64,000 bases of DNA from an uncultured Gammaproteobacteria bacterium (GCA_951828235.1 OX639965.1:1668212-1732211); one strand, 5' to 3'; numbered from the stretch's first letter, positions 5,150 to 28,951 are shown. The notes: generated by a model not told the origin, from the letters alone. Program-made: numbers and translations.

Positions 5150-6418
5150 TGCATCAGCGGCGACCGCCGGTATATCTCGTTGACGGTTCATCGGAGGGGC
5201 CAGCGCCCACGCTCCTCGCCGTCCAGAAGCCCCAGTCCCCCGGGCCAGTATGTTCAACGCGGCATTGATATCCGCATTGCCGTAACGCCCGCAGGCGCGG
5301 CACTCGAAGCTGGCCTGCGAGCGCCGGTTGTCCTTTGCGACATGCCCGCAGTGCGAGCAGGTCTGAGAAGTGTAGGCCGGATCAACCTCGATCAGATCGG
5401 CGACCTTGTAGGCAAGCTTGTCGCGCAAGCCGCCCCAGCCGGTGTCGAGGATCCCCCGGTTCAGCCGCGCCTTGGCCCGCACCCTGCTGCCGGGGCGCCG
5501 GGCTGTGCCCTTCGCCGACTTCGTCATCGCCTCGATGTCCAGCTTCTCGACCACTACCGTTCCGGCGGTGGATACGAGATCACGGCTGGCGTGGTGCTGC
5601 CAGTTGGCGCGGATCATCGCCAGCTTCCTCGAGACCGACGCCCGTCGATGCCGGGCCAGGGCCCTTCTCTTCGAGCCCTTCCTGCGCCGGTCCATCATCC
5701 GCTGGTAGCGGTTCTCGCGGCCCTGCAGCTTCGCGACCTCGGGCGTGTGCAGGATCTCTCCGCCGCTGGTGGCGACTTGGCCGACGTTGCGGTCAAGGCC
5801 GAGGGTACGGCCATTGTCGTGCGGCGCCACGAGCTCGTCGGGAACCTCGTAGCACACCGTGCAGTACCAGCGCCCCAGCACGCGCTTGACCACGGCCTGC
5901 TTCGGCACATGGGCGTCATAGGGGTTGCCGCCCGAACGCCGCAGTACGCACCAGCCGATCTTCGGAATCCAGAGCCGGCGCACGCCGGTGATGGAGTCGA
6001 TGCGTATGGTCACGTTCTGCGGGATCGTGAACGAGTCATCGCCCCGGCGGGCCTTGAACTTCGGGAAGCCCGCCTTCGGATCGGTGAAGGTCCGCTTCCA
6101 GGCATCGGCCTGGCGCTTGAGGGCATAGCGCACCGGAGCGCAAGGGAGAGACTGTAGCCAAGGGGTCTCGGCACGAAGTTCCTTGAACCGCTTGCCGAGC
6201 GAGAAGAATGTGAGCGAGGGCTTTGCCGGGCGCTCGAAGCACATTCCAAGAAGCGTGTCCTCGCAGAAGCGCGGAGTGTCGCAATGCAGCCGGTACTGTT
6301 CCTTGGTCTCCGCCAGCACCCGGTTCCAGACCCAGCGGCCCGCGCCAGCGGTCTGAGAGACCTTCTCCGCCTTCGCGGCGCTGCCCGGGGCCAGGCGGAA
6401 TGTGATGTTGCGGTGCAT
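5141..6418 (-). CDS. tnpB: TnpB (OrfB) RNA-guided endonuclease of the IS200/IS605-IS1341 type; appears intact.
   Basis: RuvC-like residues in LGLDRNVGQ, VVVEKLDIE and NADINAALNI. Zinc ribbon CSHCGH...CRACG. 425 aa. Confidence 0.9.
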   Translation of the reverse strand: MHRNITFRLAPGSAAKAEKVSQTAGAGRWVWNRVLAETKEQYRLHCDTPRFCEDTLLGMCFERPAKPSLTFFSLGKRFKELRAETPWLQSLPCAPVRYALKRQADAWKRTFTDPKAGFPKFKARRGDDSFTIPQNVTIRIDSITGVRRLWIPKIGWCVLRRSGGNPYDAHVPKQAVVKRVLGRWYCTVCYEVPDELVAPHDNGRTLGLDRNVGQVATSGGEILHTPEVAKLQGRENRYQRMMDRRRKGSKRRALARHRRASVSRKLAMIRANWQHHASRDLVSTAGTVVVEKLDIEAMTKSAKGTARRPGSRVRAKARLNRGILDTGWGGLRDKLAYKVADLIEVDPAYTSQTCSHCGHVAKDNRRSQASFECRACGRYGNADINAALNILARGTGASGRRGAWALAPPMNRQRDIPAVAADAAT

Positions 6419-19903: not shown

Positions 19904-21844
19904 TTACTCTTCCTGGGTGAAGCTGCGCAGGCGCTCGGCGTGCGAGGGATGGCGCAGCTTGCGCAGCGCCTTGGCTTCGATCTGGCGGATGCGCTCGCGG
20001 GTGACGTCGAACTGCTTGCCGACCTCCTCCAGCGTGTGATCGGTGTTCATGTCGATCCCGAAGCGCATGCGCAGCACCTTGGCCTCGCGGGCGCCCAGCG
20101 TAGCAAGCACGTCGCGCATCGTCTCCTCCAGCCCGCGCGTGGTCGCCACGTCCATCGGTGAAGTGGCGTTCTGGTCCTCGATGAAGTCGCCCAGGTGCGA
20201 ATCCTCGTCCTCGCTTAGCGGCGTTTCCAGCGAAATCGGCTGCTTGGCGATCTTCTGAACCTTGCGGACCTTTTCCTCGGGCATCTCCATGCGCTGCGCC
20301 AGTTCCTCCGGCGTGGGGTCGCGTCCCATTTCCTGCTGCATCTGCCGGGAAATGCGGTTCAGCTTGTTGATCGTCTCGATCATGTGAACCGGCACGCGGA
20401 TCGTGCGCGCCTGGTCGGCGATCGAACGGGTGATGGCCTGGCGGATCCACCAGGTGGCGTAGGTCGAGAATTTGTATCCGCGCCGGTACTCGAACTTGTC
20501 CACCGCCTTCATCAGCCCGATGTTGCCTTCCTGGATCAGGTCGTTGAACTGCAGTCCGCGATTGGTGTATTTCTTGGCGATGGAAATGACCAGGCGCAGA
20601 TTGGCCTCGACCATTTCCTTTTTCGCGTCCTTGGCTTTCAGTTCGTTGTGGGATATCTCGCGGTACAGCTCCTTGATGCCGCGCGCCATGGGCTTGCCGT
20701 CCTTGCCCCTGGGAATGGCCTTGAAGCGGTTGATCGGCAGGCAGCACTTGTTCTCGACCCTGCGTAGGCGGCGGGTAAGCTGCCGCGCTTCCTCGGCATG
20801 GGGCGCCAGTTTCGATCCGTACTCCTCGCTGGCCAGTTGTTCCTCCAGCCATTCGTCGTTGCTTGGATCGGATGCGAAATATTCCTTGAAGCTGCCCAGC
20901 TTGATCCCCGCGCTGCGCACGTATATCCGGCGAAGCCGCTTTTCGCATCCCGATACCGACGAGGGATACAGCGCGTCCTGATCGTCGGAAGGGGCGCGCA
21001 TGGTGGCGTGCAGCGCGTCGAGCATGCCGTCGAAGGCGCGCGGCGTGAATTTCAGCTCCAGCAACATCCGGCTCATGACCTTCTGCGTGTGCTTGAGGTT
21101 GCGGCAGGACAGCGCGAAATGTTCCGGTGCTTCGCCGTTCTGGGCCTTGAGCTCCTGCGCTCGAACCCTCTTGAGGGCGCGATGCACCCGGGCGCACTGA
21201 TCCGTCAAAGCGAGCAAGCGCCGTTCCAGTTCCACGGGATCGGGCGGCTGTTTGCGCGCGGCGTTGTCGGCCGGGTCGCGTTCGGCGGCGGGCCGCAAGT
21301 CTTCAGGTTCGTCCGGATCGACGATCTTGGCTACCAGGTCGGTCAGCTTCATCCGGCCGGCCCGGTAATCCTCGAAGCGGTCAACCAGGTGCTGTACTGA
21401 CGGCAGGTAATAGGCCATAAGACGCTGGATTTCGCTGCGGCTCTGCTCGATGCGCCGCGCGATGCTGATTTCCCCTTCGCGGGTGAGCAATTCGACCGAA
21501 CCCATCTCGCGCATGTAAAGCCGCACGGGATCGGTGGTGCGGCCCAGTTCGACTTCGAACGCGCTGATGGCGTCATCGGCCTCTTCCACGTCGTCGTTGG
21601 TGGATTCGCCTTCGGTCAGGGCCAGGGTGTCCGCATCGGGAACCTCGTCCTCCTCGTACACCTTGATGTCCATGTCGCGGAGCACGTTGATGATTTCCTC
21701 GATCTGCTCCATCTCGACGATCTCGTCGGGGAGCTGGTCGGTCAGCTCGGTGTGCGTGATGTACGAGCGTTGCCGCCCTAGTGAAATGAGCTTCTTGAGC
21801 CAGTTTCTCTGTCGTGAGCGCTGTGTAGTGGTTCCAACGGTCAT
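19904..21844 (-). CDS. rpoD: RNA polymerase primary sigma factor sigma-70.
   Basis: [14 protein letters not shown] (region 2), [28 protein letters not shown] (region 4), acidic N-terminal region. Confidence 0.95.
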
Positions 21845-21886
21845 GCGGGGTGGCTGCCTCCGGGAGGTTTAACCGAACAATTATCG

Positions 21887-21894
21887 CTTATTTT
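21887..21894. repeat. Target-site duplication, left copy (CTTATTTT).
   Basis: An identical 8-mer directly abuts the outside of both inverted repeats. Confidence 0.85.
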
Positions 21895-21919
21895 GGGGAT
21901 TATATACCTAACTTGACAA
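21895..21919. repeat. Inverted repeat (rpoD-proximal end).
   Basis: GGGGATTATATACCTAACTTGACAA. Confidence 0.95.
21899..21904 (-). promoter_or_regulatory. Outward-facing consensus -10 hexamer (TATAAT) inside the IR, pointing toward rpoD.
   Basis: The minus strand reads TATAAT, ending 4 nt from the element tip. No good -35 sits at 17-bp spacing (TGCACC). Confidence 0.3.
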
Positions 21920-21933
21920 CAGGTGCACAAAGA

Positions 21934-21959
21934 GCAGCGCCCCTCGAAAGGGGCGCTGC
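21934..21959 (-). terminator. GC-rich hairpin, probable terminator of the minus-strand cargo operon.
   Basis: GCAGCGCCCCT-CGAA-AGGGGCGCTGC. On the minus strand it is followed by TCTTTGTG. Confidence 0.5.
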
Positions 21960-21990
21960 AATAGTATCCTAGAGTAAAGACCGCAACACG

Positions 21991-22134
21991 CTACATTACG
22001 AACCCAAGGAATGCGAAAATGAACGCTGCCAGGAACATGAGGAAAGCCACGACTTTACGGTCTTCATAATGCAGTCCCATAGTCAGAACCAAGAGTGCGC
22101 ACAGCCCCAGCCCAAGAGCGATATTCAACAACAT
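21991..22134 (-). CDS. 47-aa two-helix membrane peptide (hypothetical).
   Basis: Hand translation is MLLNIALGLGLCALLVLTMGLHYEDRKVVAFLMFLAAFIFAFLGFVM. It starts 2 nt after the upstream stop and is below the ORF-track size cutoff. Confidence 0.4.
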   Translation of the reverse strand: MLLNIALGLGLCALLVLTMGLHYEDRKVVAFLMFLAAFIFAFLGFVM

Positions 22135-22136
22135 TG

Positions 22137-23021
22137 TTAGTCGCGCTGGCGCCTTTCCCACTCCCTGAACTGTTCCAGGAATCGATCGAGCCGCCCCAGC
22201 GTATGATCCGCCGTATCCTCCTGGCTCAATGCATCTGCTTCTTCGCGGGCCAACGCGACCAGCACATCGATAATCTGCTGCCTCTCAGCGTCACTTAATG
22301 CATTCCATTCTTCTTCGGTCAGGCTGTCCAGATCGGCCAGTATCTCGACAACGGTTCTTGAGCTACTCCCAGAGGATGATCCGCCGGGCGCTTCTGTTCG
22401 GTTGCTAGGCCCGGTCGTTCGTGGATTTTTGCTCAAGCAATCCAAATACGCACCAGCGGCTGTGCCTGTAACTGCGCCTTGCAAGATTGCACTGCAAGGA
22501 TCGCGTAGCGCGTAAATTACATCGTTTTCGTTGATGTAAACATATATGTCCAAGGGATCCCTTCGGGTCGTCGCCTGGATTCCCCAATACGTTCCAATGG
22601 CGGTTGCCGCGGCGTGTATGGCGCCAACAGATTCCCTCAAGAACCATCCTGCCAAAGCTATAGATACTGTGTTTTCCGCAGTGGACATTGTGTAGGAAAG
22701 AGTCACCATTCTTCGCATGTCGTCAGTGACCATGTAACAACGTCCATCGGCAACGTAGTAGTCATATTCTTCCCGAACGATGAGTTCCCATTCATCTTCG
22801 TAATGTTCACGCCCGCGCCATGAAGACCCGTCTCTTGCATCGGCCCAACATTCACTCGGGGTGTCGTAGCCGTAAACATTTGTGGTGGCCCGCGCTGAAA
22901 ATACGCCCACAAGGAAATACAGTGCCATGACCAGCAATAGAAATATGCCGATACGTTCCCCTGTTTTTGACAGCGCCCATTGATGATAAGTCCGCCAAGC
23001 ATTACGAATCTTGTTTGTCAT
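22137..23021 (-). CDS. Hypothetical 294-aa protein with an N-terminal membrane anchor and an acidic coiled-coil C-terminus.
   Basis: ATG at 23021 (MTNKIRN) is preceded by AAGGAG. The longer track ORF (to 23255) runs through the tRNA gene and is rejected. I recognise no domain. Confidence 0.6.
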   Translation of the reverse strand: MTNKIRNAWRTYHQWALSKTGERIGIFLLLVMALYFLVGVFSARATTNVYGYDTPSECWADARDGSSWRGREHYEDEWELIVREEYDYYVADGRCYMVTDDMRRMVTLSYTMSTAENTVSIALAGWFLRESVGAIHAAATAIGTYWGIQATTRRDPLDIYVYINENDVIYALRDPCSAILQGAVTGTAAGAYLDCLSKNPRTTGPSNRTEAPGGSSSGSSSRTVVEILADLDSLTEEEWNALSDAERQQIIDVLVALAREEADALSQEDTADHTLGRLDRFLEQFREWERRQRD

Positions 23022-23162
23022 TTCCAAATTCTCCTTACAATGAGGAATGTGCCCCGCTGGTGAATCATGCTCTCCGTGCGCAATTTGATAGTAGCACAGT
23101 TCAATTGACAAGATAACGCGCGTTATCAGGTATACTTGATATCGCCAATGCCCAAAAGGAGA

Positions 23163-23261
23163 CGGAGGCGGCGGGATTCGAACCCACGGTAGGTATTTTG
23201 CTTTACGGGCACCTACACCGGTTTTTAAGACCGGCGCATTAAGCCACTCTGCCACGCCTCC
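23163..23261 (-). tRNA. 99-nt class II tRNA with anticodon UAA (Leu by anticodon) but Ser-like architecture, G73 discriminator and an about 30-nt variable region.
   Basis: Hand-folded cloverleaf: GGAGGCG / TG / GCA-GAGTGGCTTAA-TGC / G / CCGGT-CTTAAAA-ACCGG / TGTAGGTGCCCGTAAAGCAAAATACCTACC / GTGGG-TTCGAAT-CCCGC / CGCCTCC / G. No encoded CCA. Confidence 0.75.
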
Positions 23262-23289
23262 GCAGAGCGGTTGCGGAGCATAGCATCTT

Positions 23290-23323
23290 GGGGCGAGAGG
23301 GTTGATCCTTCTCGCCCCTTTTT
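23290..23323 (+). terminator. Intrinsic-terminator-like hairpin plus T-run, with no obvious upstream plus-strand gene.
   Basis: GGGGCGAGA-(11 nt)-TCTCGCCCC-TTTTT. Confidence 0.45.
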
Positions 23324-23665
23324 ACTATGTGATATATTTTCCCACGAGAAATTCGCTGGTATCCCCTATGTCGGGTTGCCCGCTGAATACAACAGCCGTT
23401 TGCAGCCTGGAGTAGCTATCCGGACTTGGTAAACAAGCGGGATTTTCGCTACCAGTGAATTTCTCAAAGGCCCGGCGCTTTGCCAGGCCAAAACAAGCGA
23501 GCCTCCAACGAGGATAAGTCGTCGGAGGCTCTTACCGCGCAGAGAGTTGAATACCACACAGCGCGGCAGCGGCATTGTAGCCTCTGCAACGAGCAGGCTT
23601 TCTCTCTGCGCCTCAGCCGACCCCGCTTTCCAAGGCGGGGTCGGTTCCAATAAGAGGAAGAGAGC

Positions 23666-24169
23666 ATGTTTGAGAAGAAAGCAGATCCTGGCGGGGCTAT
23701 TTTCGTCGGGATACTTCTAATCGTTGTCGTTCCACTTCTGACAGGGATGTGTTCTGTTGCTTATCCACAAGAAAGCAACAGAATCCTGACTAAAGAGCAG
23801 TCACCCGCCGTGCAAGCAATTAACACGGCGCTAGAGAACGTGGACGCCGCAATTGTGGAAGCAACGGTAACGCGAGACTATTTTGTTGCGCAACTTGCCG
23901 CACCTACATTCAACACAGCGAAGATAGAAGAGAAAAGCCACGCGCATATGGCAAAAATTACGGCAGCGGACGAAAAATGGCGTATTGCTTCCGAGTTGCT
24001 TCAAGAGACGGCAGAAAACGCGCCTCATGCCTTCAAGAGTATTGAACAATTATGGGCGACACGTGATCGCCTGCAAGCCGCGCGCGACCGTATTACGGCA
24101 TTGGGAGAAGATGCGCTAAAAGCACTGGACCGAAGCGCGTCCCGTTTACAGAGACAGTTGGAACGATGA
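23666..24169 (+). CDS. Hypothetical membrane-anchored coiled-coil protein (167 aa).
   Basis: N-terminal TM segment (AIFVGILLIVVVPLLTG). ATGA overlap with the downstream nuclease gene. AGAGGAAGAGAG RBS region. Confidence 0.55.
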   Translation: MFEKKADPGGAIFVGILLIVVVPLLTGMCSVAYPQESNRILTKEQSPAVQAINTALENVDAAIVEATVTRDYFVAQLAAPTFNTAKIEEKSHAHMAKITAADEKWRIASELLQETAENAPHAFKSIEQLWATRDRLQAARDRITALGEDALKALDRSASRLQRQLER

Positions 24170-24810
24170 AGAAAACCACTCCTGTTCTCTTCGCATTACT
24201 GGCCTACGCCTGTCTTGCCACGGGCGAAGATGCACACGCCCAGCTCGCAACAGCAGCCACCGTAACCGGCGCCTATGATGGAGACACGATTTACGTTACC
24301 GCGGCTGTTTGGCCCAACATGCTTTGGGCTGGCAGTGTTCGCGTTCTCGGCGTAGACACACCGGAGATTCAGGGGCGCTGCGTACAGGAAAGCACGCTGG
24401 CGCTTGAGGCACGGGATTACGTTCGGGATCTGTTGACTGACGAGAGTGTTCTTTTGACGGATGTGAAGAACGACAAATATGGCGGGCGTGTCCTGGCGCA
24501 TGTCTTTTTACAAGCGGAAGACAACCAGCAGAATCTTGCTGCTCTACTTATCGAGCGAGGCTTGGGGCGTGATTATGATGGCGGCACTCGGCAAAGCTGG
24601 TGTGGAGATGAGCAGGAATTGCCCGAACAGGCGGCACCAGTTGATGCCGATGTGAACCTGGACGATCCTCTTGCACTATATGACGATAACAATAACGGCA
24701 GGATTACTTGTGCTGAAGCAAGAAAGCACGGGATTGCGCCCGTGAAAAGCGACCATCCTGCTTACCGCTATATGAACGATAGAGACAGGGATGGGGTGGT
24801 TTGCGAGTAA
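24166..24810 (+). CDS. Secreted thermonuclease (SNase-like) with a C-terminal Excalibur calcium-binding domain.
   Basis: Signal peptide, DGDTIYV, LGVDTPE, KYGGRVLAHVF, and a C-terminal DDNNNGRITCAEA...DRDRDGVVCE. Confidence 0.8.
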   Translation: MKKTTPVLFALLAYACLATGEDAHAQLATAATVTGAYDGDTIYVTAAVWPNMLWAGSVRVLGVDTPEIQGRCVQESTLALEARDYVRDLLTDESVLLTDVKNDKYGGRVLAHVFLQAEDNQQNLAALLIERGLGRDYDGGTRQSWCGDEQELPEQAAPVDADVNLDDPLALYDDNNNGRITCAEARKHGIAPVKSDHPAYRYMNDRDRDGVVCE

Positions 24811-24860
24811 TTATCAAGATAACCAAGATAATCTTGTGATACACTCCTTTCCAAGGAGAG

Positions 24861-24933
24861 TGGCCCCGGAGAGAATCGAACTCTCACCTTCCCGTTCGGC
24901 AAACAGGGGCTCTATCCGTTGAGCTACGGGGCC
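24861..24933 (-). tRNA. tRNA-Gly (anticodon GCC), 73 nt, no encoded CCA.
   Basis: Hand fold: GGCCCCG / TA / GCTC-AACGGATA-GAGC / C / CCTGT-TTGCCGA-ACGGG / AAGGT / GAGAG-TTCGATT-CTCTC / CGGGGCC / A. Confidence 0.85.
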
Positions 24934-25085
24934 ACTTCTTCATTCTACTGTTAATGAATGCACGTAACTACGTGCGGCGCTTAATTCGTTGCGCATGAAA
25001 TTTGCGCAAAGAATTACAACAGAATATGTTGTATCATATATTCAACAGTTTTAACTGTAATCATCATCAATATCTGGAGATAACT

Positions 25086-25337
25086 ATGAGCACCAAATCC
25101 AAGCTCAATGGCAGCGTTGATTTGTTGGCTAAAGCAATGCGTCAGGTGTTCACAGAGGCCGTAGAAGAAGGTCTTGTTCCAGTGCGAGAGGACATCAAGG
25201 ACATTCGTGGCGACATCAAGAAACTGAGCGACGGTCTGGACACGACAAACCAGAACATGCAGGCGCAATTCGCGCAACATCGCAAGGACGTGTCGGCAGA
25301 TGTGCGCCAAGCTTTACGGCGTCAGCCTAGCCGTTAG
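25086..25337 (+). CDS. Hypothetical 83-aa helical protein.
   Basis: ATG at 25086 (MSTKSKLNGSVDLL...) with GGAG 6 nt upstream of the ATG. Convergent 4-nt overlap with the transposase stop. Confidence 0.4.
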   Translation: MSTKSKLNGSVDLLAKAMRQVFTEAVEEGLVPVREDIKDIRGDIKKLSDGLDTTNQNMQAQFAQHRKDVSADVRQALRRQPSR

Positions 25338-26287
25338 GCGATCAAGTCCCGGTACATCAGCCGCTTTCCAACTAGGCCAGCGATTACGTTCCGCATCATC
25401 GCGGCGGTATCGCACTCGCGGAGATTGTGACGGCCTGCGAACTCTGTGACGTAACGTTGCAGGTGCTTCCGACTCATCTTGTGGAACGTGCCGGTGTGAG
25501 CACGTTTGAGCATTGACCAAAAGGACTCTACGCCGTTGGTGTGAATCTGCCCATCAACGTATTGTCCGGCGCCATGCTTGACAGCACTATGATTCGCCAG
25601 TCCTCTATAGGCACGCGCTTCGTCGGTAAAGATTGGAGCGCCAGGAGCCGCTGATGCACTTACGAAGCCGTGCAATGTGGGTTTGTCTGTCTTCTCCACT
25701 ACACGAGCCTGAACACGATTACTCTGACGATCCTTTGCGCCGACTACGGCTGTCTTGCCCACGGTGCCGCGACCTGCTTTCAGGCGGTCCTTGACATGTT
25801 TGTTCTTCTCTTTGCCACCCACATAGGTTTCGTCTACTTCCACCGGACCGATAAACTTTTCAATGCCTGATGTGTCCCAAGCCTCGCGTAATCTGTGGAG
25901 CAGGAACCACGCCGTCTTTTGCGTCACTTTCAGATCCCGATGCAGCTTCATGCTGGACACGCCCTTCAAGCTGGTTACATAGAGATAGGTTGCGACCGCC
26001 CACTTGCGCAGTGGCAGGCGGGAACTCTGCAAGGTTGTGCCGGTGCGGACGCTGAAATACTGGCGGCAGTCCGTGCACCAATAGGGCATCGGCTTGCGGT
26101 TCGGGACTTCCTTTGTCGCAGTGCTTCCACAGTGACCGCAGCATCGACCCTCCGGCCATTGTACGGATTCGAACCACTGGACAGCCGTATCTTCGTCGGG
26201 AAACATCTCCATTAGCCTGATGAGCGAGATGCCTTTACGATCTGATTTTCCGGGAGATTTGTGCTTGGACATAATGTATTCCTCCAT
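25334..26287 (-). CDS. IS1595-family DDE transposase (ISXO2-like domain) with an N-terminal zinc ribbon.
   Basis: CCGHCGS...YWCTDCRQYFSVRTGT, VEVDETYVGG, FTDEARAY, HTNGVESFWSMLKR. Alternative start at 26272 (MSKHK). Confidence 0.9.
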   Translation of the reverse strand: MEEYIMSKHKSPGKSDRKGISLIRLMEMFPDEDTAVQWFESVQWPEGRCCGHCGSTATKEVPNRKPMPYWCTDCRQYFSVRTGTTLQSSRLPLRKWAVATYLYVTSLKGVSSMKLHRDLKVTQKTAWFLLHRLREAWDTSGIEKFIGPVEVDETYVGGKEKNKHVKDRLKAGRGTVGKTAVVGAKDRQSNRVQARVVEKTDKPTLHGFVSASAAPGAPIFTDEARAYRGLANHSAVKHGAGQYVDGQIHTNGVESFWSMLKRAHTGTFHKMSRKHLQRYVTEFAGRHNLRECDTAAMMRNVIAGLVGKRLMYRDLIA

Positions 26288-26315
26288 ACGCGTATTTTCT
26301 CAGATTATGCTGGCT

Positions 26316-26340
26316 TTGTCAAGTTAGGTATATAATCCCC
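26316..26340. repeat. Inverted repeat (transposase-proximal end).
   Basis: TTGTCAAGTTAGGTATATAATCCCC is the exact reverse complement of 21895-21919. Confidence 0.95.
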
Positions 26341-26348
26341 CTTATTTT
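26341..26348. repeat. Target-site duplication, right copy (CTTATTTT).
   Basis: Identical to 21887-21894. Confidence 0.85.
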
Positions 26349-26465: not shown

Positions 26466-26852
26466 TCATTGCCTCATGGCGCGCCGCAGGAAGACGACGC
26501 CAAAGGCCACGACGAAGAGTTCAAAGACGATCGCCAGTCCCTGGTTCGCGGAAATTCCGGGCCCTCCGGCCAGGACCTCGGCAAGCAGCCGGGTCAGCAT
26601 CAGCGCGCCGACGCCGAAAACCGTGCAGGCGAGGCCGGCGAAGGCCAGTCGCTTCGACCACAGGCCTGAAATCAGCAACAGTCCGATGCCCGCCACCAGG
26701 CCGCCATAGGTCGCCCGGATTTCGGTCACGCCCGAGGGGTCTGCCGGCGCAATGCCCATCGCCTGTCCCAGGGTGTGCGGATCAACGTAGGCAAACAGGG
26801 CGGAAGCGATGAAGATGCCGCCCACGACTGCGAGGTAGATTTTTTGCGCCAT
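26466..26852 (-). CDS. Small polytopic membrane protein (128 aa; DUF4345-like by recollection).
   Basis: ATG at 26852 (MAQKIYLAVVGGIF...) with a GGGAGA RBS and four hydrophobic segments. The longer track ORF overlaps dnaG. Confidence 0.55.
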   Translation of the reverse strand: MAQKIYLAVVGGIFIASALFAYVDPHTLGQAMGIAPADPSGVTEIRATYGGLVAGIGLLLISGLWSKRLAFAGLACTVFGVGALMLTRLLAEVLAGGPGISANQGLAIVFELFVVAFGVVFLRRAMRQ

Positions 26853-26886: not shown

Positions 26887-28545
26887 TCAGCCGGGGGTGC
26901 GCGCCGCCATTTCGCGAATCGAATTTTCCTTGCGCATTCTGACAACGCCCTCCTCGAACTCCAGCCTGGCCTGGCGCGCGCTGAGCTCGGTTCCCCTGGC
27001 CAGGAGTTGCGAAACAAGGCCATGTTCGGGCTTTTCGCGGTAGCGCTCGACGAGCTTGACCGGGCTGATCCCCGGTGTTGCGCGCACCGTTTCGAACAGT
27101 TCCGACAGCAGGCCGATGCGCGGCTCCTTAAGGTATTTCAGTTCCGGCAACGGGTCGAGGTCCGCGGCCAGTTCGGGGAAAATGACGAGCAGGCCGGCCA
27201 GCGATTCGGCCAGGTTGCCCCAGGGGTCCCGTCGCAGAGGTCTTGAGGCCGGCTGGCGGGCAACGTCGCGCCTGCGCTGCGAAGTTTCCAGGAGCTGCCC
27301 CAGGCGCTCCCGCGGAAGCTGCACCTCTTCGGCCAGGCGGTTCATCAAGAGGTCCCGGTATACGCCGACCGGCGTGGCGCCGAGCAGCGGCCGCGCCAGT
27401 TCGGCCATCCGCGCGCGTCCCTCCGCGGTGGCGAGATCGCATTGTGCGGAAAGTGTCTGCATCAGGAATTCGGACATCGGCGTGGCGGAATCCAGCACCT
27501 TGTTGAAGGACGCCGCCCCCTCGGAGCGCACGTAACTGTCGGGGTCCTCGCCCTCGGGCAGAAAGGCGAAACTCAACTGGCGTCCGCCGCGCATTTCCGG
27601 CAGGGCCCGCTCCATAGCCCGCTCGGCCGCTCTCCGCCCGGCCGGGTCGCCGTCGAAGCAGAACACGACGCTGGGTGCGATCCGGAACAGCCGCGTGAGC
27701 TGCTGCGGGGTAACCGCAGTTCCCAGCGAGGCCATGGCGCCTGCCACGTCATTCTGCGCCAGCCCGATGACGTCCATATACCCTTCCACCAGCACGCAGC
27801 GGTCGACTTTTCGCCGGCCCAGTTCATGCAGTCCGTACAGTTCGCGTCCCTTGTGGAACACCGGCGTTTCCGGGCTGTTCATGTACTTGGGCTGGACGTC
27901 GCCCATCGCCCGTCCGCCGAAACCGGTCACGCGGCCGCGGCGGTCGCGGATCGGGAACATGATCCGGTCGCGGAAGCGGTCATAGAGTTCGCCGGATTCG
28001 CCCTTGAGCGCCAGGCCCGCGTCAACCAGGCTGCGGCGCTGGTCCTCCGACTGGCCAAAGCGCGCCAGGATGCCGTTGCCCCGGGGCGCGTAACCGATCC
28101 CGAAGGCCTGCGCCACCTTTCCGGTAAGTCCGCGGCTCTTGAGGTAGTCCTTGGCCGGGTCGCTGCCCTTGAGCTGCTCGATGTAGTGCCGGGCGGCCCC
28201 GTTGAGCAGGTCGTACAGGCCCTTGCCGGAAGGCCGGGACGGACCGCGGCGCGGCACTTCGAGACCGTAGCGTTCGGCCAGCGCCTCCACCGCGGCGGGA
28301 AAGTCCAGCCGGTCGTGCTGCATCATGAAGCCCAGGACGCTGCCGTGGGCGCCGCATCCAAAGCAGTGGTAGAAGTCCTTTGTGGGGTTGACGGTGAAAG
28401 ACGGGGTTTTCTCGTTGTGAAACGGACAAAGTCCCTTGTATTCGCGCCCGGCCCGCTTAAGCTTGACGCGTTCGCCGATGATCTGCGTTATGTCGGCGCG
28501 ATCCAGGAGATCGTCGATAAATTCTCTCGGAATCGGCCCGGCCAT
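26887..28545 (-). CDS. dnaG: DNA primase.
   Basis: Zinc finger CPFHNEKTPSFTVNPTKDFYHCFGCGAHG and TOPRIM EGYMDV. The MAGPIPREFIDDLL start at 28545 is preferred; the upstream extension runs through the REP element. Confidence 0.92.
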   Translation of the reverse strand: MAGPIPREFIDDLLDRADITQIIGERVKLKRAGREYKGLCPFHNEKTPSFTVNPTKDFYHCFGCGAHGSVLGFMMQHDRLDFPAAVEALAERYGLEVPRRGPSRPSGKGLYDLLNGAARHYIEQLKGSDPAKDYLKSRGLTGKVAQAFGIGYAPRGNGILARFGQSEDQRRSLVDAGLALKGESGELYDRFRDRIMFPIRDRRGRVTGFGGRAMGDVQPKYMNSPETPVFHKGRELYGLHELGRRKVDRCVLVEGYMDVIGLAQNDVAGAMASLGTAVTPQQLTRLFRIAPSVVFCFDGDPAGRRAAERAMERALPEMRGGRQLSFAFLPEGEDPDSYVRSEGAASFNKVLDSATPMSEFLMQTLSAQCDLATAEGRARMAELARPLLGATPVGVYRDLLMNRLAEEVQLPRERLGQLLETSQRRRDVARQPASRPLRRDPWGNLAESLAGLLVIFPELAADLDPLPELKYLKEPRIGLLSELFETVRATPGISPVKLVERYREKPEHGLVSQLLARGTELSARQARLEFEEGVVRMRKENSIREMAARTPG

Positions 28546-28546
28546 A

Positions 28547-28568
28547 GCCGAATATTGCACTATTCGGC
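28547..28568 (-). promoter_or_regulatory. Perfect 8-bp hairpin occupying the Shine-Dalgarno window of dnaG.
   Basis: GCCGAATA-TTGCAC-TATTCGGC, ending 1 nt from the ATG. No SD-like purine run is visible. Confidence 0.35.
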
Positions 28569-28735: not shown

Positions 28736-28951
28736 TTAGTAGAGGCGGCGGCGGCGATTCTGTTCGCGGCTGGTGCGCTTGGCCTGGCGCTTTACGGCGG
28801 CGGCCTTCTGACGCTTGCGAACCTGGGTCGGCTTCTCGTAGGACTCGCGGCGGCGCACCTCGGACAGGATGCCGGCCTTCTCGCAGGCGCGCTTGAAGCG
28901 GCGCAAGGCCGCATCAAAGACTTCGTTTTCCTTTATCCGTACGCTGGGCAA
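28736..28951 (-). CDS. rpsU: 30S ribosomal protein S21.
   Basis: (M)[57 protein letters not shown] start with a GAGGAAA RBS. Confidence 0.9.

Follow-up and report, generated by a model that had tools for sequence, protein, structure and literature searches.

The window, a stretch of 64,000 nucleotides from an uncultured gammaproteobacterium, carries rpsU, dnaG and rpoD on the minus strand in the classical order of the macromolecular-synthesis operon. This arrangement had been recognised in a first-pass annotation and it held up here, with the identities of the three genes confirmed by profiles and their order syntenic in relatives. A further gene, encoding a DUF4345 membrane protein, is absent from that earlier account; it is syntenic in most of the relatives that we fetched, while the L085-L087 lineage displays an unannotated 74-aa gene instead. 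The genes of the locus are as follows.

28736-28951, minus strand: rpsU (TIGR00030, S21), with a conserved TTGCAA-17-TAAAAT upstream
26887-28545, minus strand: dnaG (TIGR01391), called as 552 aa in relatives
26466-26852, minus strand: DUF4345 membrane-protein gene (PF14248), between dnaG and the inserted element
19904-21844, minus strand: rpoD, 646 aa, intact (NCBIfam NF004208 RpoD, 730 bits; all sigma-70 regions identified by Pfam)

The E. coli macromolecular-synthesis operon rpsU-dnaG-rpoD contains internal promoters and a terminator. The window shares its gene order and strand, and conserved promoter-like motifs are found before rpsU, dnaG and rpoD. Unlike in the E. coli operon, a DUF4345 gene lies between dnaG and rpoD, the candidate rpoD-proximal promoter is intergenic and not within dnaG, and some strains have a toxin-antitoxin pair between rpsU and dnaG. 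This pair is of the PIN/MazE type and is encoded on the opposite strand (L081:4789-5471, L084:369-1051); neither the window nor L082 carries it. In L089, dnaG and rpsU are not neighbours. An invariant GTGCAATATTCGG was observed 2-4 nt before the dnaG ATG in all lineages (window ~28546-28565, minus strand; L082 ~5735-5753), which resembles an extended -10 (TGcAATATT) and would be positioned for a leaderless dnaG mRNA. Among the matches listed, the RpoD relatives are 85-93% identical and the next matches, from Gammaproteobacteria, ~52%; this gap places the host in a deep lineage that has been sampled sparsely and is known from metagenomes only.

Everything upstream of rpoD is cut off from it by an IS1595-family element of 4446 bp (~4.4 kb, 21895-26340), as the first-pass annotation had claimed and as the element coordinates and the gene order bear out. 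The element has a G+C content of ~52%, against ~65% for the host, and is bounded by perfect terminal inverted repeats (25/25 bp, GGGGATTATATACCTAACTTGACAA) with two matches in the window (21895-21919 and, inverted, 26316-26340) where none is expected. An 8-bp direct target duplication, AAAATAAG, is present at 26341-26348 and 21887-21894. The components of the element, from the dnaG side towards rpoD, are listed below.

26341-26348, no strand assigned: target duplication copy AAAATAAG, dnaG side
26294-26340, minus strand: left inverted repeat (26316-26340) and transposase promoter, the latter from the promoter scan
25334-26272, minus strand: IS1595-family transposase, 312 aa (PF12762, NF033547)
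24861-24933, minus strand: tRNA, anticodon GCC (ARAGORN; Rfam 62.7 bits)
23666-24810, plus strand: 167-aa hypothetical protein and 214-aa SNase + Excalibur nuclease (PF00565, PF05901; PHROG endonuclease)
23163-23261, minus strand: class-II tRNA, anticodon UAA, with a very long variable arm (~28 nt); Rfam tRNA 59.5 bits, missed by ARAGORN
21991-23021, minus strand: cargo open reading frames of 294 aa (22137-23021) and of a 47-aa hydrophobic peptide (21991-22134), without family match, pointing toward rpoD
21934-21959, minus strand: terminator-like hairpin at the end of the last cargo unit, 11-bp stem with 9 G-C pairs, tail UCUUUGUG
21895-21919, no strand assigned: right inverted repeat, with an outward TATAAT (21904-21899) and an outward TTGTCA (21919-21914)

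The transposase is matched by PF12762 (4.4e-41, 140.9 bits; cut-off 27) and NF033547 (1.2e-57, 195 bits; cut-off 75). The N-terminal zinc-ribbon profile PF12760 scores 21.6 bits, below the cut-off of 25.4, and the CxxC...CxxC pattern is visible in the sequence. The promoter scan places TTGACA (26322-26317), a spacer of 17 nt and TG-n-GAAAAT (26299-26294) in front of the transposase gene, with 10/12 matches and a TG. P0001 is 100% identical to the window transposase; exact look-ups with the 312-aa form, a 317-aa form and P0001 returned no record, and hence no further copies of the exact element. Passenger-carrying IS of the IS1595 family are referred to as transporter IS and include the ISNwi1/ISSod11/ISNha5-type groups of ISfinder. 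Like them, the element has one DDE_Tnp_IS1595 transposase, whose N-terminus shows CxxC pairs reminiscent of a zinc ribbon, repeats beginning with GGGG, an 8-bp duplication and, between its transposase gene and right repeat, cargo that varies. Unlike known transporter IS, its cargo has two tRNA genes, with one more in the related L091 element, and we found no description of tRNA cargo in such IS1595-family elements.

An exact-protein look-up of RpoD identified two contigs from one metagenome assembly (ERZ18545484), L081 and L082, in which RpoD is identical to that of the window and the element is absent. Both display the layout dnaG, DUF4345, a 167-nt gap and rpoD, with a single copy of AAAATAAG at the native site. 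When the element and one duplication copy are removed from the window, the intergenic region is identical to both contigs over 167/167 positions; the element-free reconstruction is 99.6% identical to L082 over 16.4 kb and 98.3% identical to L081, and rpoD differs from that of L082 by 4 nt with no change in the protein. Because empty-site contigs with an identical RpoD exist and the reconstruction is exact, the insertion is a recent, strain-specific and precise transposition event. For the same reasons an assembly artefact was rejected as the source of the element. In five further lineages that were fetched (L084 to L090), dnaG, a small gene and rpoD follow in order, and none carries the element.

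The target AAAATAAG is the most A+T-rich stretch of the G+C-rich DUF4345-rpoD spacer, and the target duplications of 11 related insertions have a mean of ~64% A+T in hosts of 56-74% G+C. A transporter IS has recently moved, in one strain, into an A-rich tract of the spacer. The site can be explained by a preference for AT-rich 8-bp targets together with selection, since insertions that destroy the core promoter of an essential gene would not survive. Most likely, the insertion beside rpoD was an ordinary tolerated event rather than a takeover of rpoD by an element-borne promoter. The three conspecific strains provide a natural before/after pair: in one of them the element sits at -22 of the promoter of this essential gene, and in the other two the site is empty. 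For an uncultured lineage of Gammaproteobacteria, this pair of occupied and empty sites sets the upstream limit of the cis requirement of rpoD.

On the minus strand, the region facing rpoD (21959-21842) reads, in order, the hairpin GCAGCGCCCCTTTCGAGGGGCGCTGC, TCTTTGTGCACCTG, the repeat TTGTCAAGTTAGGTATATAATCCCC, AAAATAAG, C, GATAAT, TGTTCGGTTAAACCTCCCGGAGGCAGCCACCCCGC and ATG. From the rpoD ATG (21844) to the tip of the repeat there are 50 nt (21845-21894), the distance proposed in the first-pass annotation, and 8 of these 50 are the duplication copy. The outward TATAAT reported there was likewise found in the repeat, 4 nt from its tip and pointing at rpoD. The following features lie in the 50 nt.

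21887-21894, no strand assigned: target duplication copy AAAATAAG, rpoD side, equal to native positions -21 to -14
21879-21887, minus strand: candidate native core promoter G(-14)-c-GATAAT-T, hexamer at 21885-21880, G(-14) at 21887, predicted start ~21874-21872
21857-21861, minus strand: rpoD Shine-Dalgarno GGAGG (CGGAG invariant in the clade; alignment A1, columns C184-G188)

The element landed at about -22. Because transposition duplicates the 8-bp target, the native sequence is kept on the rpoD side from -21 through the ATG, and from the duplication to the ATG the window sequence equals the native one. Of the invariant positions, just one has changed: the A at -22 has been replaced by a C.

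In order to see what this residual sequence contains, we aligned the regions upstream of rpoD from six lineages (RpoD identity 85-100%). GATAATT is the only long invariant block in the alignment; the distance from the end of GATAAT to the rpoD ATG is 35 nt in every lineage, except for one with 36. The G at -14, two bases before GATAAT, is invariant in the six lineages, while -15 is A or G. Directly upstream of GATAATT, A.A.AT..G is also invariant in the clade, and the DNA beyond it is unalignable. No -35-like hexamer at 16-18 nt from GATAAT is conserved across the six lineages; upstream of rpsU in the same clade the alignment reveals the canonical TTGCAA-17-TAAAAT, so that a conserved -35 before rpoD would have shown. 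The most conserved non-coding block of the region, G-n-GATAATT, lies within the residual 50 nt. The two closest lineages, L082 and L084, have in common a TTTATG 17 nt upstream of GATAAT, which may be a weak -35 and which has been removed by the element.

A comparable motif was found well outside the clade. We searched up to 160 nt upstream of rpoD, in 80 distant gammaproteobacterial loci (~52% RpoD identity, among the matches listed), for a -10-like hexamer followed after 2-5 nt by YGGYT; 21 of the 80 loci carry it, whereas in shuffled sequences the count averaged 4.0 and never exceeded 9. The clear cases, from Halieaceae, Spongiibacteraceae, Rhodanobacter, Photobacterium, Metapseudomonas and Colwellia, read G-n-TATAAT-N3-CGGYT with G at -14 in 14/15, and positions -15/-14 are TG or GG in several other taxa. 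The counterpart in the window is G-c-GATAAT-TGTT-CGGTT. From this recurrence we infer that G-n-TATAAT-N3-CGGYT represents an extended -10-like promoter, proximal to rpoD and conserved across many lineages, and the finding points to such a promoter operating without a conserved -35.

Several other identities for the conserved block were considered and set aside. Compared by eye with consensus sequences, the block does not resemble a sigma-32, sigma-54 or DnaA-box site, and in the case of sigma-28 (TAAAGTTT-N11-GCCGATAA) only the -10 half is similar, with no matching -35. Rfam found no cis-regulatory RNA in the rpoD leader. In L085, L088, L089 and L090, ATTGACA or ATTGAAA is conserved 7 nt upstream of GATAAT (window ~21898-21893; ACAAAA in the species of the window). 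The TTGACA of these four lineages is too close, at 7 nt, to act as the -35 of GATAAT, and it was also rejected as the -35 of a downstream -10, with no -10-like hexamer at 16-18 nt. This motif may be a regulator site, in which case the block would not be purely a promoter.

Transcription reaching rpoD from further upstream was also assessed. The native DUF4345-rpoD spacer folds no better than shuffled sequences (z between -1.0 and +1.0) and has no significant terminator, so that native insulation of rpoD from dnaG cannot be asserted. Native read-through from dnaG-DUF4345 into rpoD is therefore possible and, given the lack of a significant terminator fold in the spacer, the element probably removed some of it. 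Within the element, the 56 nt around the hairpin (21920-21975) fold at -27.8 kcal/mol with z = -5.8, and the terminator scan also lists the hairpin. The suggestion of the first-pass annotation that this hairpin stops read-through from the cargo is thus supported by a strong, terminator-like and scan-listed stem, but it is weakened by the U-tract: the tail UCUUUGUG is interrupted, with 5 U in 8.

Because the duplication spares the conserved block, rpoD need not depend on the element. The reading that we favour has rpoD transcribed mainly from the native core promoter in the residual 50 nt, and we judge the chances that this is the main source to be about even. Transcription would start at ~21873, leaving a 5' UTR of ~28-30 nt, and the promoter would be extended -10-like, consisting of G at -14 and GATAAT without a conserved -35. 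The AT-rich tip of the repeat would simply replace upstream DNA that is not conserved, with any dnaG-DUF4345 read-through being what is lost. Promoters with a TG/G(-14) extended -10 can function without a -35, and we infer from the conservation that the block is an active promoter, able to work without its native upstream DNA. Several observations speak against it. Only the G(-14) of the TG motif is present, with -15 being A or G, the TTTATG shared by L082 and L084 is gone, and the motif 7 nt upstream of GATAAT in four lineages may mark a regulator site within the block. By a rough matrix, moreover, GATAAT scores 9.4 bits in its native context (TTTATG-17-GATAAT) but drops to 4.2 bits when the -35 comes from the element. 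This matrix uses approximate values of published E. coli hexamer frequencies. By E. coli rules the candidates at the junction are respectable and the native -10 has been robbed of its weak -35: TTGTCA-18-CAAAAT scores 11.0 bits and TGCACC-17-TATAAT 10.2 bits, compared with 8.9 bits for TTGCCC-16-AAAAAT in the native sequence. In random 166-nt host windows the best score has a median of 3.2 and a 90th percentile of 7.2. The native block is nevertheless preferred over these higher-scoring candidates because we weighted conservation above E. coli-rule scores.

The top score belongs to a putative fusion promoter, in which the repeat would provide the -35 TTGTCA (21919-21914), followed after 18 nt by CAAAAT (21895-21890), a hexamer that takes its C from the end of the repeat and its other bases from the duplicated target, with a start at ~21883. 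It is the sole outward junction candidate that passes the consensus promoter scan (9/12 matches), it closely mimics the native candidate TTGCCC-16-AAAAAT, duplicated by the insertion, and an IS-borne -35 combined with a -10 in the target is the classical design described for IS1, IS2, IS257, IS30 and others (PMC9330008). It remains unlikely as the main driver of rpoD: the scan of the region returned 5 matches against 3.2 expected from shuffles, which is near chance, the 18-nt spacer is suboptimal, and neither CAAAAT nor AAAAAT is conserved as a -10 in the clade, where only A.A.AT..G is invariant. The closest relatives, moreover, do not have the outward TTGTCA in their right repeat (ACGTCA in L083, CTGTCT in L171 and L174), and here it would be a by-product of the perfect repeat. 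Unlike the fusion promoters of those IS, the candidate in the window has an outward -35 that is not conserved in sister elements, and dependence of the downstream gene on it is not supported, as rpoD keeps its own conserved -10 block past the junction. The idea that the TATAAT of the repeat (21904-21899) is an outward -10 on which rpoD depends, with a start at ~21892, appears very unlikely to us. The hexamer is a perfect -10, its rough-matrix score is above those of the native candidates, it is conserved among the most closely related elements (L083, L171, L174, L108 and L091), and several relatives lie co-directionally 20-50 nt before genes, such as L108 at 49 nt before a GCS2 gene. Against this, the scan does not list it, the best -35 at 17 nt being TGCACC (3/6) with no TG, so that a complete outward promoter with -35 and -10 at 16-18 nt was not found inside the end. 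Its conservation can be explained without promoter function, since ATTATA is part of the terminal transposase-recognition sequence GGGrATTAyA; in L096, L098, L101 and L103 it is replaced by ATTACA, which gives the poor -10 TGTAAT. The conserved native -10 persists 13 nt downstream, and IS1595 is not listed in a review of the families with experimentally shown outward promoters (PMC9330008). The TATAAT may still serve as an extra, weaker start site. Transcription might instead leak past the hairpin and the repeat into rpoD from the cargo operon (23021-21991), possibly also from the tRNA genes, which we consider quite improbable. The last cargo unit and both tRNA genes are co-directional with rpoD, the 294-aa open reading frame is preceded by an extended -10-like TGcTACTAT, the imperfect U-tract may let termination leak, and in a genomic survey IS1595 elements are over-represented in a co-oriented arrangement between genes (PMC9208149). 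Such leakage is opposed by the stability of the hairpin and by its position 31 nt past the stop codon, where the terminator of the cargo operon is expected, and an essential gene relying on leaky termination seems fragile. The fusion promoter and cargo read-through are both possible contributors to rpoD transcription, in addition to the native core promoter.

The first-pass annotation had proposed that rpoD may now rely on an IS-borne or hybrid promoter. Part of this stands, in that the upstream region is severed and a fusion candidate exists at the junction; what counts against it is that the conserved native -10 block is kept and that the TATAAT has neither a usable -35 nor a TG. Likewise, the comparison with element-free relatives did provide an empty site, in L081 and L082, but not a dependence of rpoD on the element, since the conserved GATAATT is retained. 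If the element were to drive rpoD, no outward promoter would have been reported for the IS1595 family before this one. In the literature we found no direct precedent for outward or hybrid promoters of IS1595 elements or for insertion sequences upstream of rpoD.

The origin of the outward hexamers was followed in relatives of the transposase fetched from metagenomes (54-86% identity). Their ends share the consensus GGGrATTAyAwa...sTTGACAr, in which the inner TTGACA provides the transposase promoter with its -35; this promoter reads TTGACA-17-TGnGAAAAT in the window and TTGACA-17-TGnGACAAT in L083. The terminal ATTATA, which reads outward as TATAAT, is found in most relatives and in all the closest ones, and the outward TTGTCA is the mirror of TTGACAA. 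With ATTATA in the conserved terminal consensus and TTGTCA mirroring TTGACAA, both outward hexamers are therefore by-products of transposase-binding and transposase-promoter sequence; judging from the relatives, the TATAAT is an ancestral part of the family terminal sequence GGGrATTATA, not special to the copy in the window. Like ISAba1, ISEcp1 and IS1237, which have complete outward promoters (PMC9330008), the element has a consensus -10 near its tip that points outward; unlike them, it has no acceptable -35 or TG, and the hexamer belongs to the conserved sequence by which the ends are recognised.

Matching 8-bp duplications were found in ten further related insertions, representing nine related elements of 2.1-4.1 kb. 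The L108 element is located 11 nt after a P-type ATPase gene and co-directionally before the GCS2 gene, while the L102 and L098 elements lie 41 nt and 20 nt, respectively, before co-directional open reading frames. It is conceivable, though we regard it with strong doubt, that the outward TATAAT at the repeat tip is a functional portable promoter element in this IS1595 subgroup, alone or in a circle-junction or fusion promoter, which would permit co-directional insertion just before genes, even the essential sigma-70 gene, without polar damage. In the strain of the window the main sigma factor would then owe part of its transcription to a mobile element which is itself dependent on sigma-70. 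In the closest relatives after L083 (L171:6932-9510, L172 and L174:2853-5379) the cargo is an N6/N4 methyltransferase-HNH fusion. The 8-bp duplication of L174, TAATTAAT, is perfect, whereas the flanks of the L171/L172 copy do not match (AAACGGAA vs ATTCAATA), which suggests that this copy has been rearranged. A second IS1595 transposase is present ~5 kb away.

The cargo of the window element displays further features. The nuclease encoded at 24166-24810 (plus strand) has a hydrophobic, putatively signal-peptide-like N-terminus and is weakly matched by the PADLOC entry C3a212 (SNc+LTD), a candidate defence protein. The plus strand also shows a strong terminator-like hairpin (23290-23318) that has a T5 tail; it is located immediately upstream of the class-II tRNA, where there is no obvious end of a plus-strand gene. 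The non-coding cargo at 23370-23582 is 74-77% similar to L083:1456-1673, inverted relative to the transposase gene, and the two elements may share an RNA or a regulatory module here; near L083:1456-1673 there are TGcTATATT motifs that resemble an extended -10. The class-II tRNA has a G discriminator and the anticodon arm CCGGUCUUAAAAACCGG. It resembles tRNA-Ser(UGA), as encoded by E. coli serT, with G35 changed to A. If seryl-tRNA synthetase charged it, the Leu codons UUA/UUG would be read as Ser. A related IS of 3197 bp, with 65% transposase identity, carries a class-I tRNA with anticodon GCU (L091:1665-1741, L092:7380-7456), that is, a Ser anticodon without the long variable arm typical of Ser tRNAs. 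This GCU tRNA is 81% identical to the GCC tRNA of the window, with the acceptor and T arms shared, so that a single tRNA scaffold appears to occur with different anticodons in the two elements.
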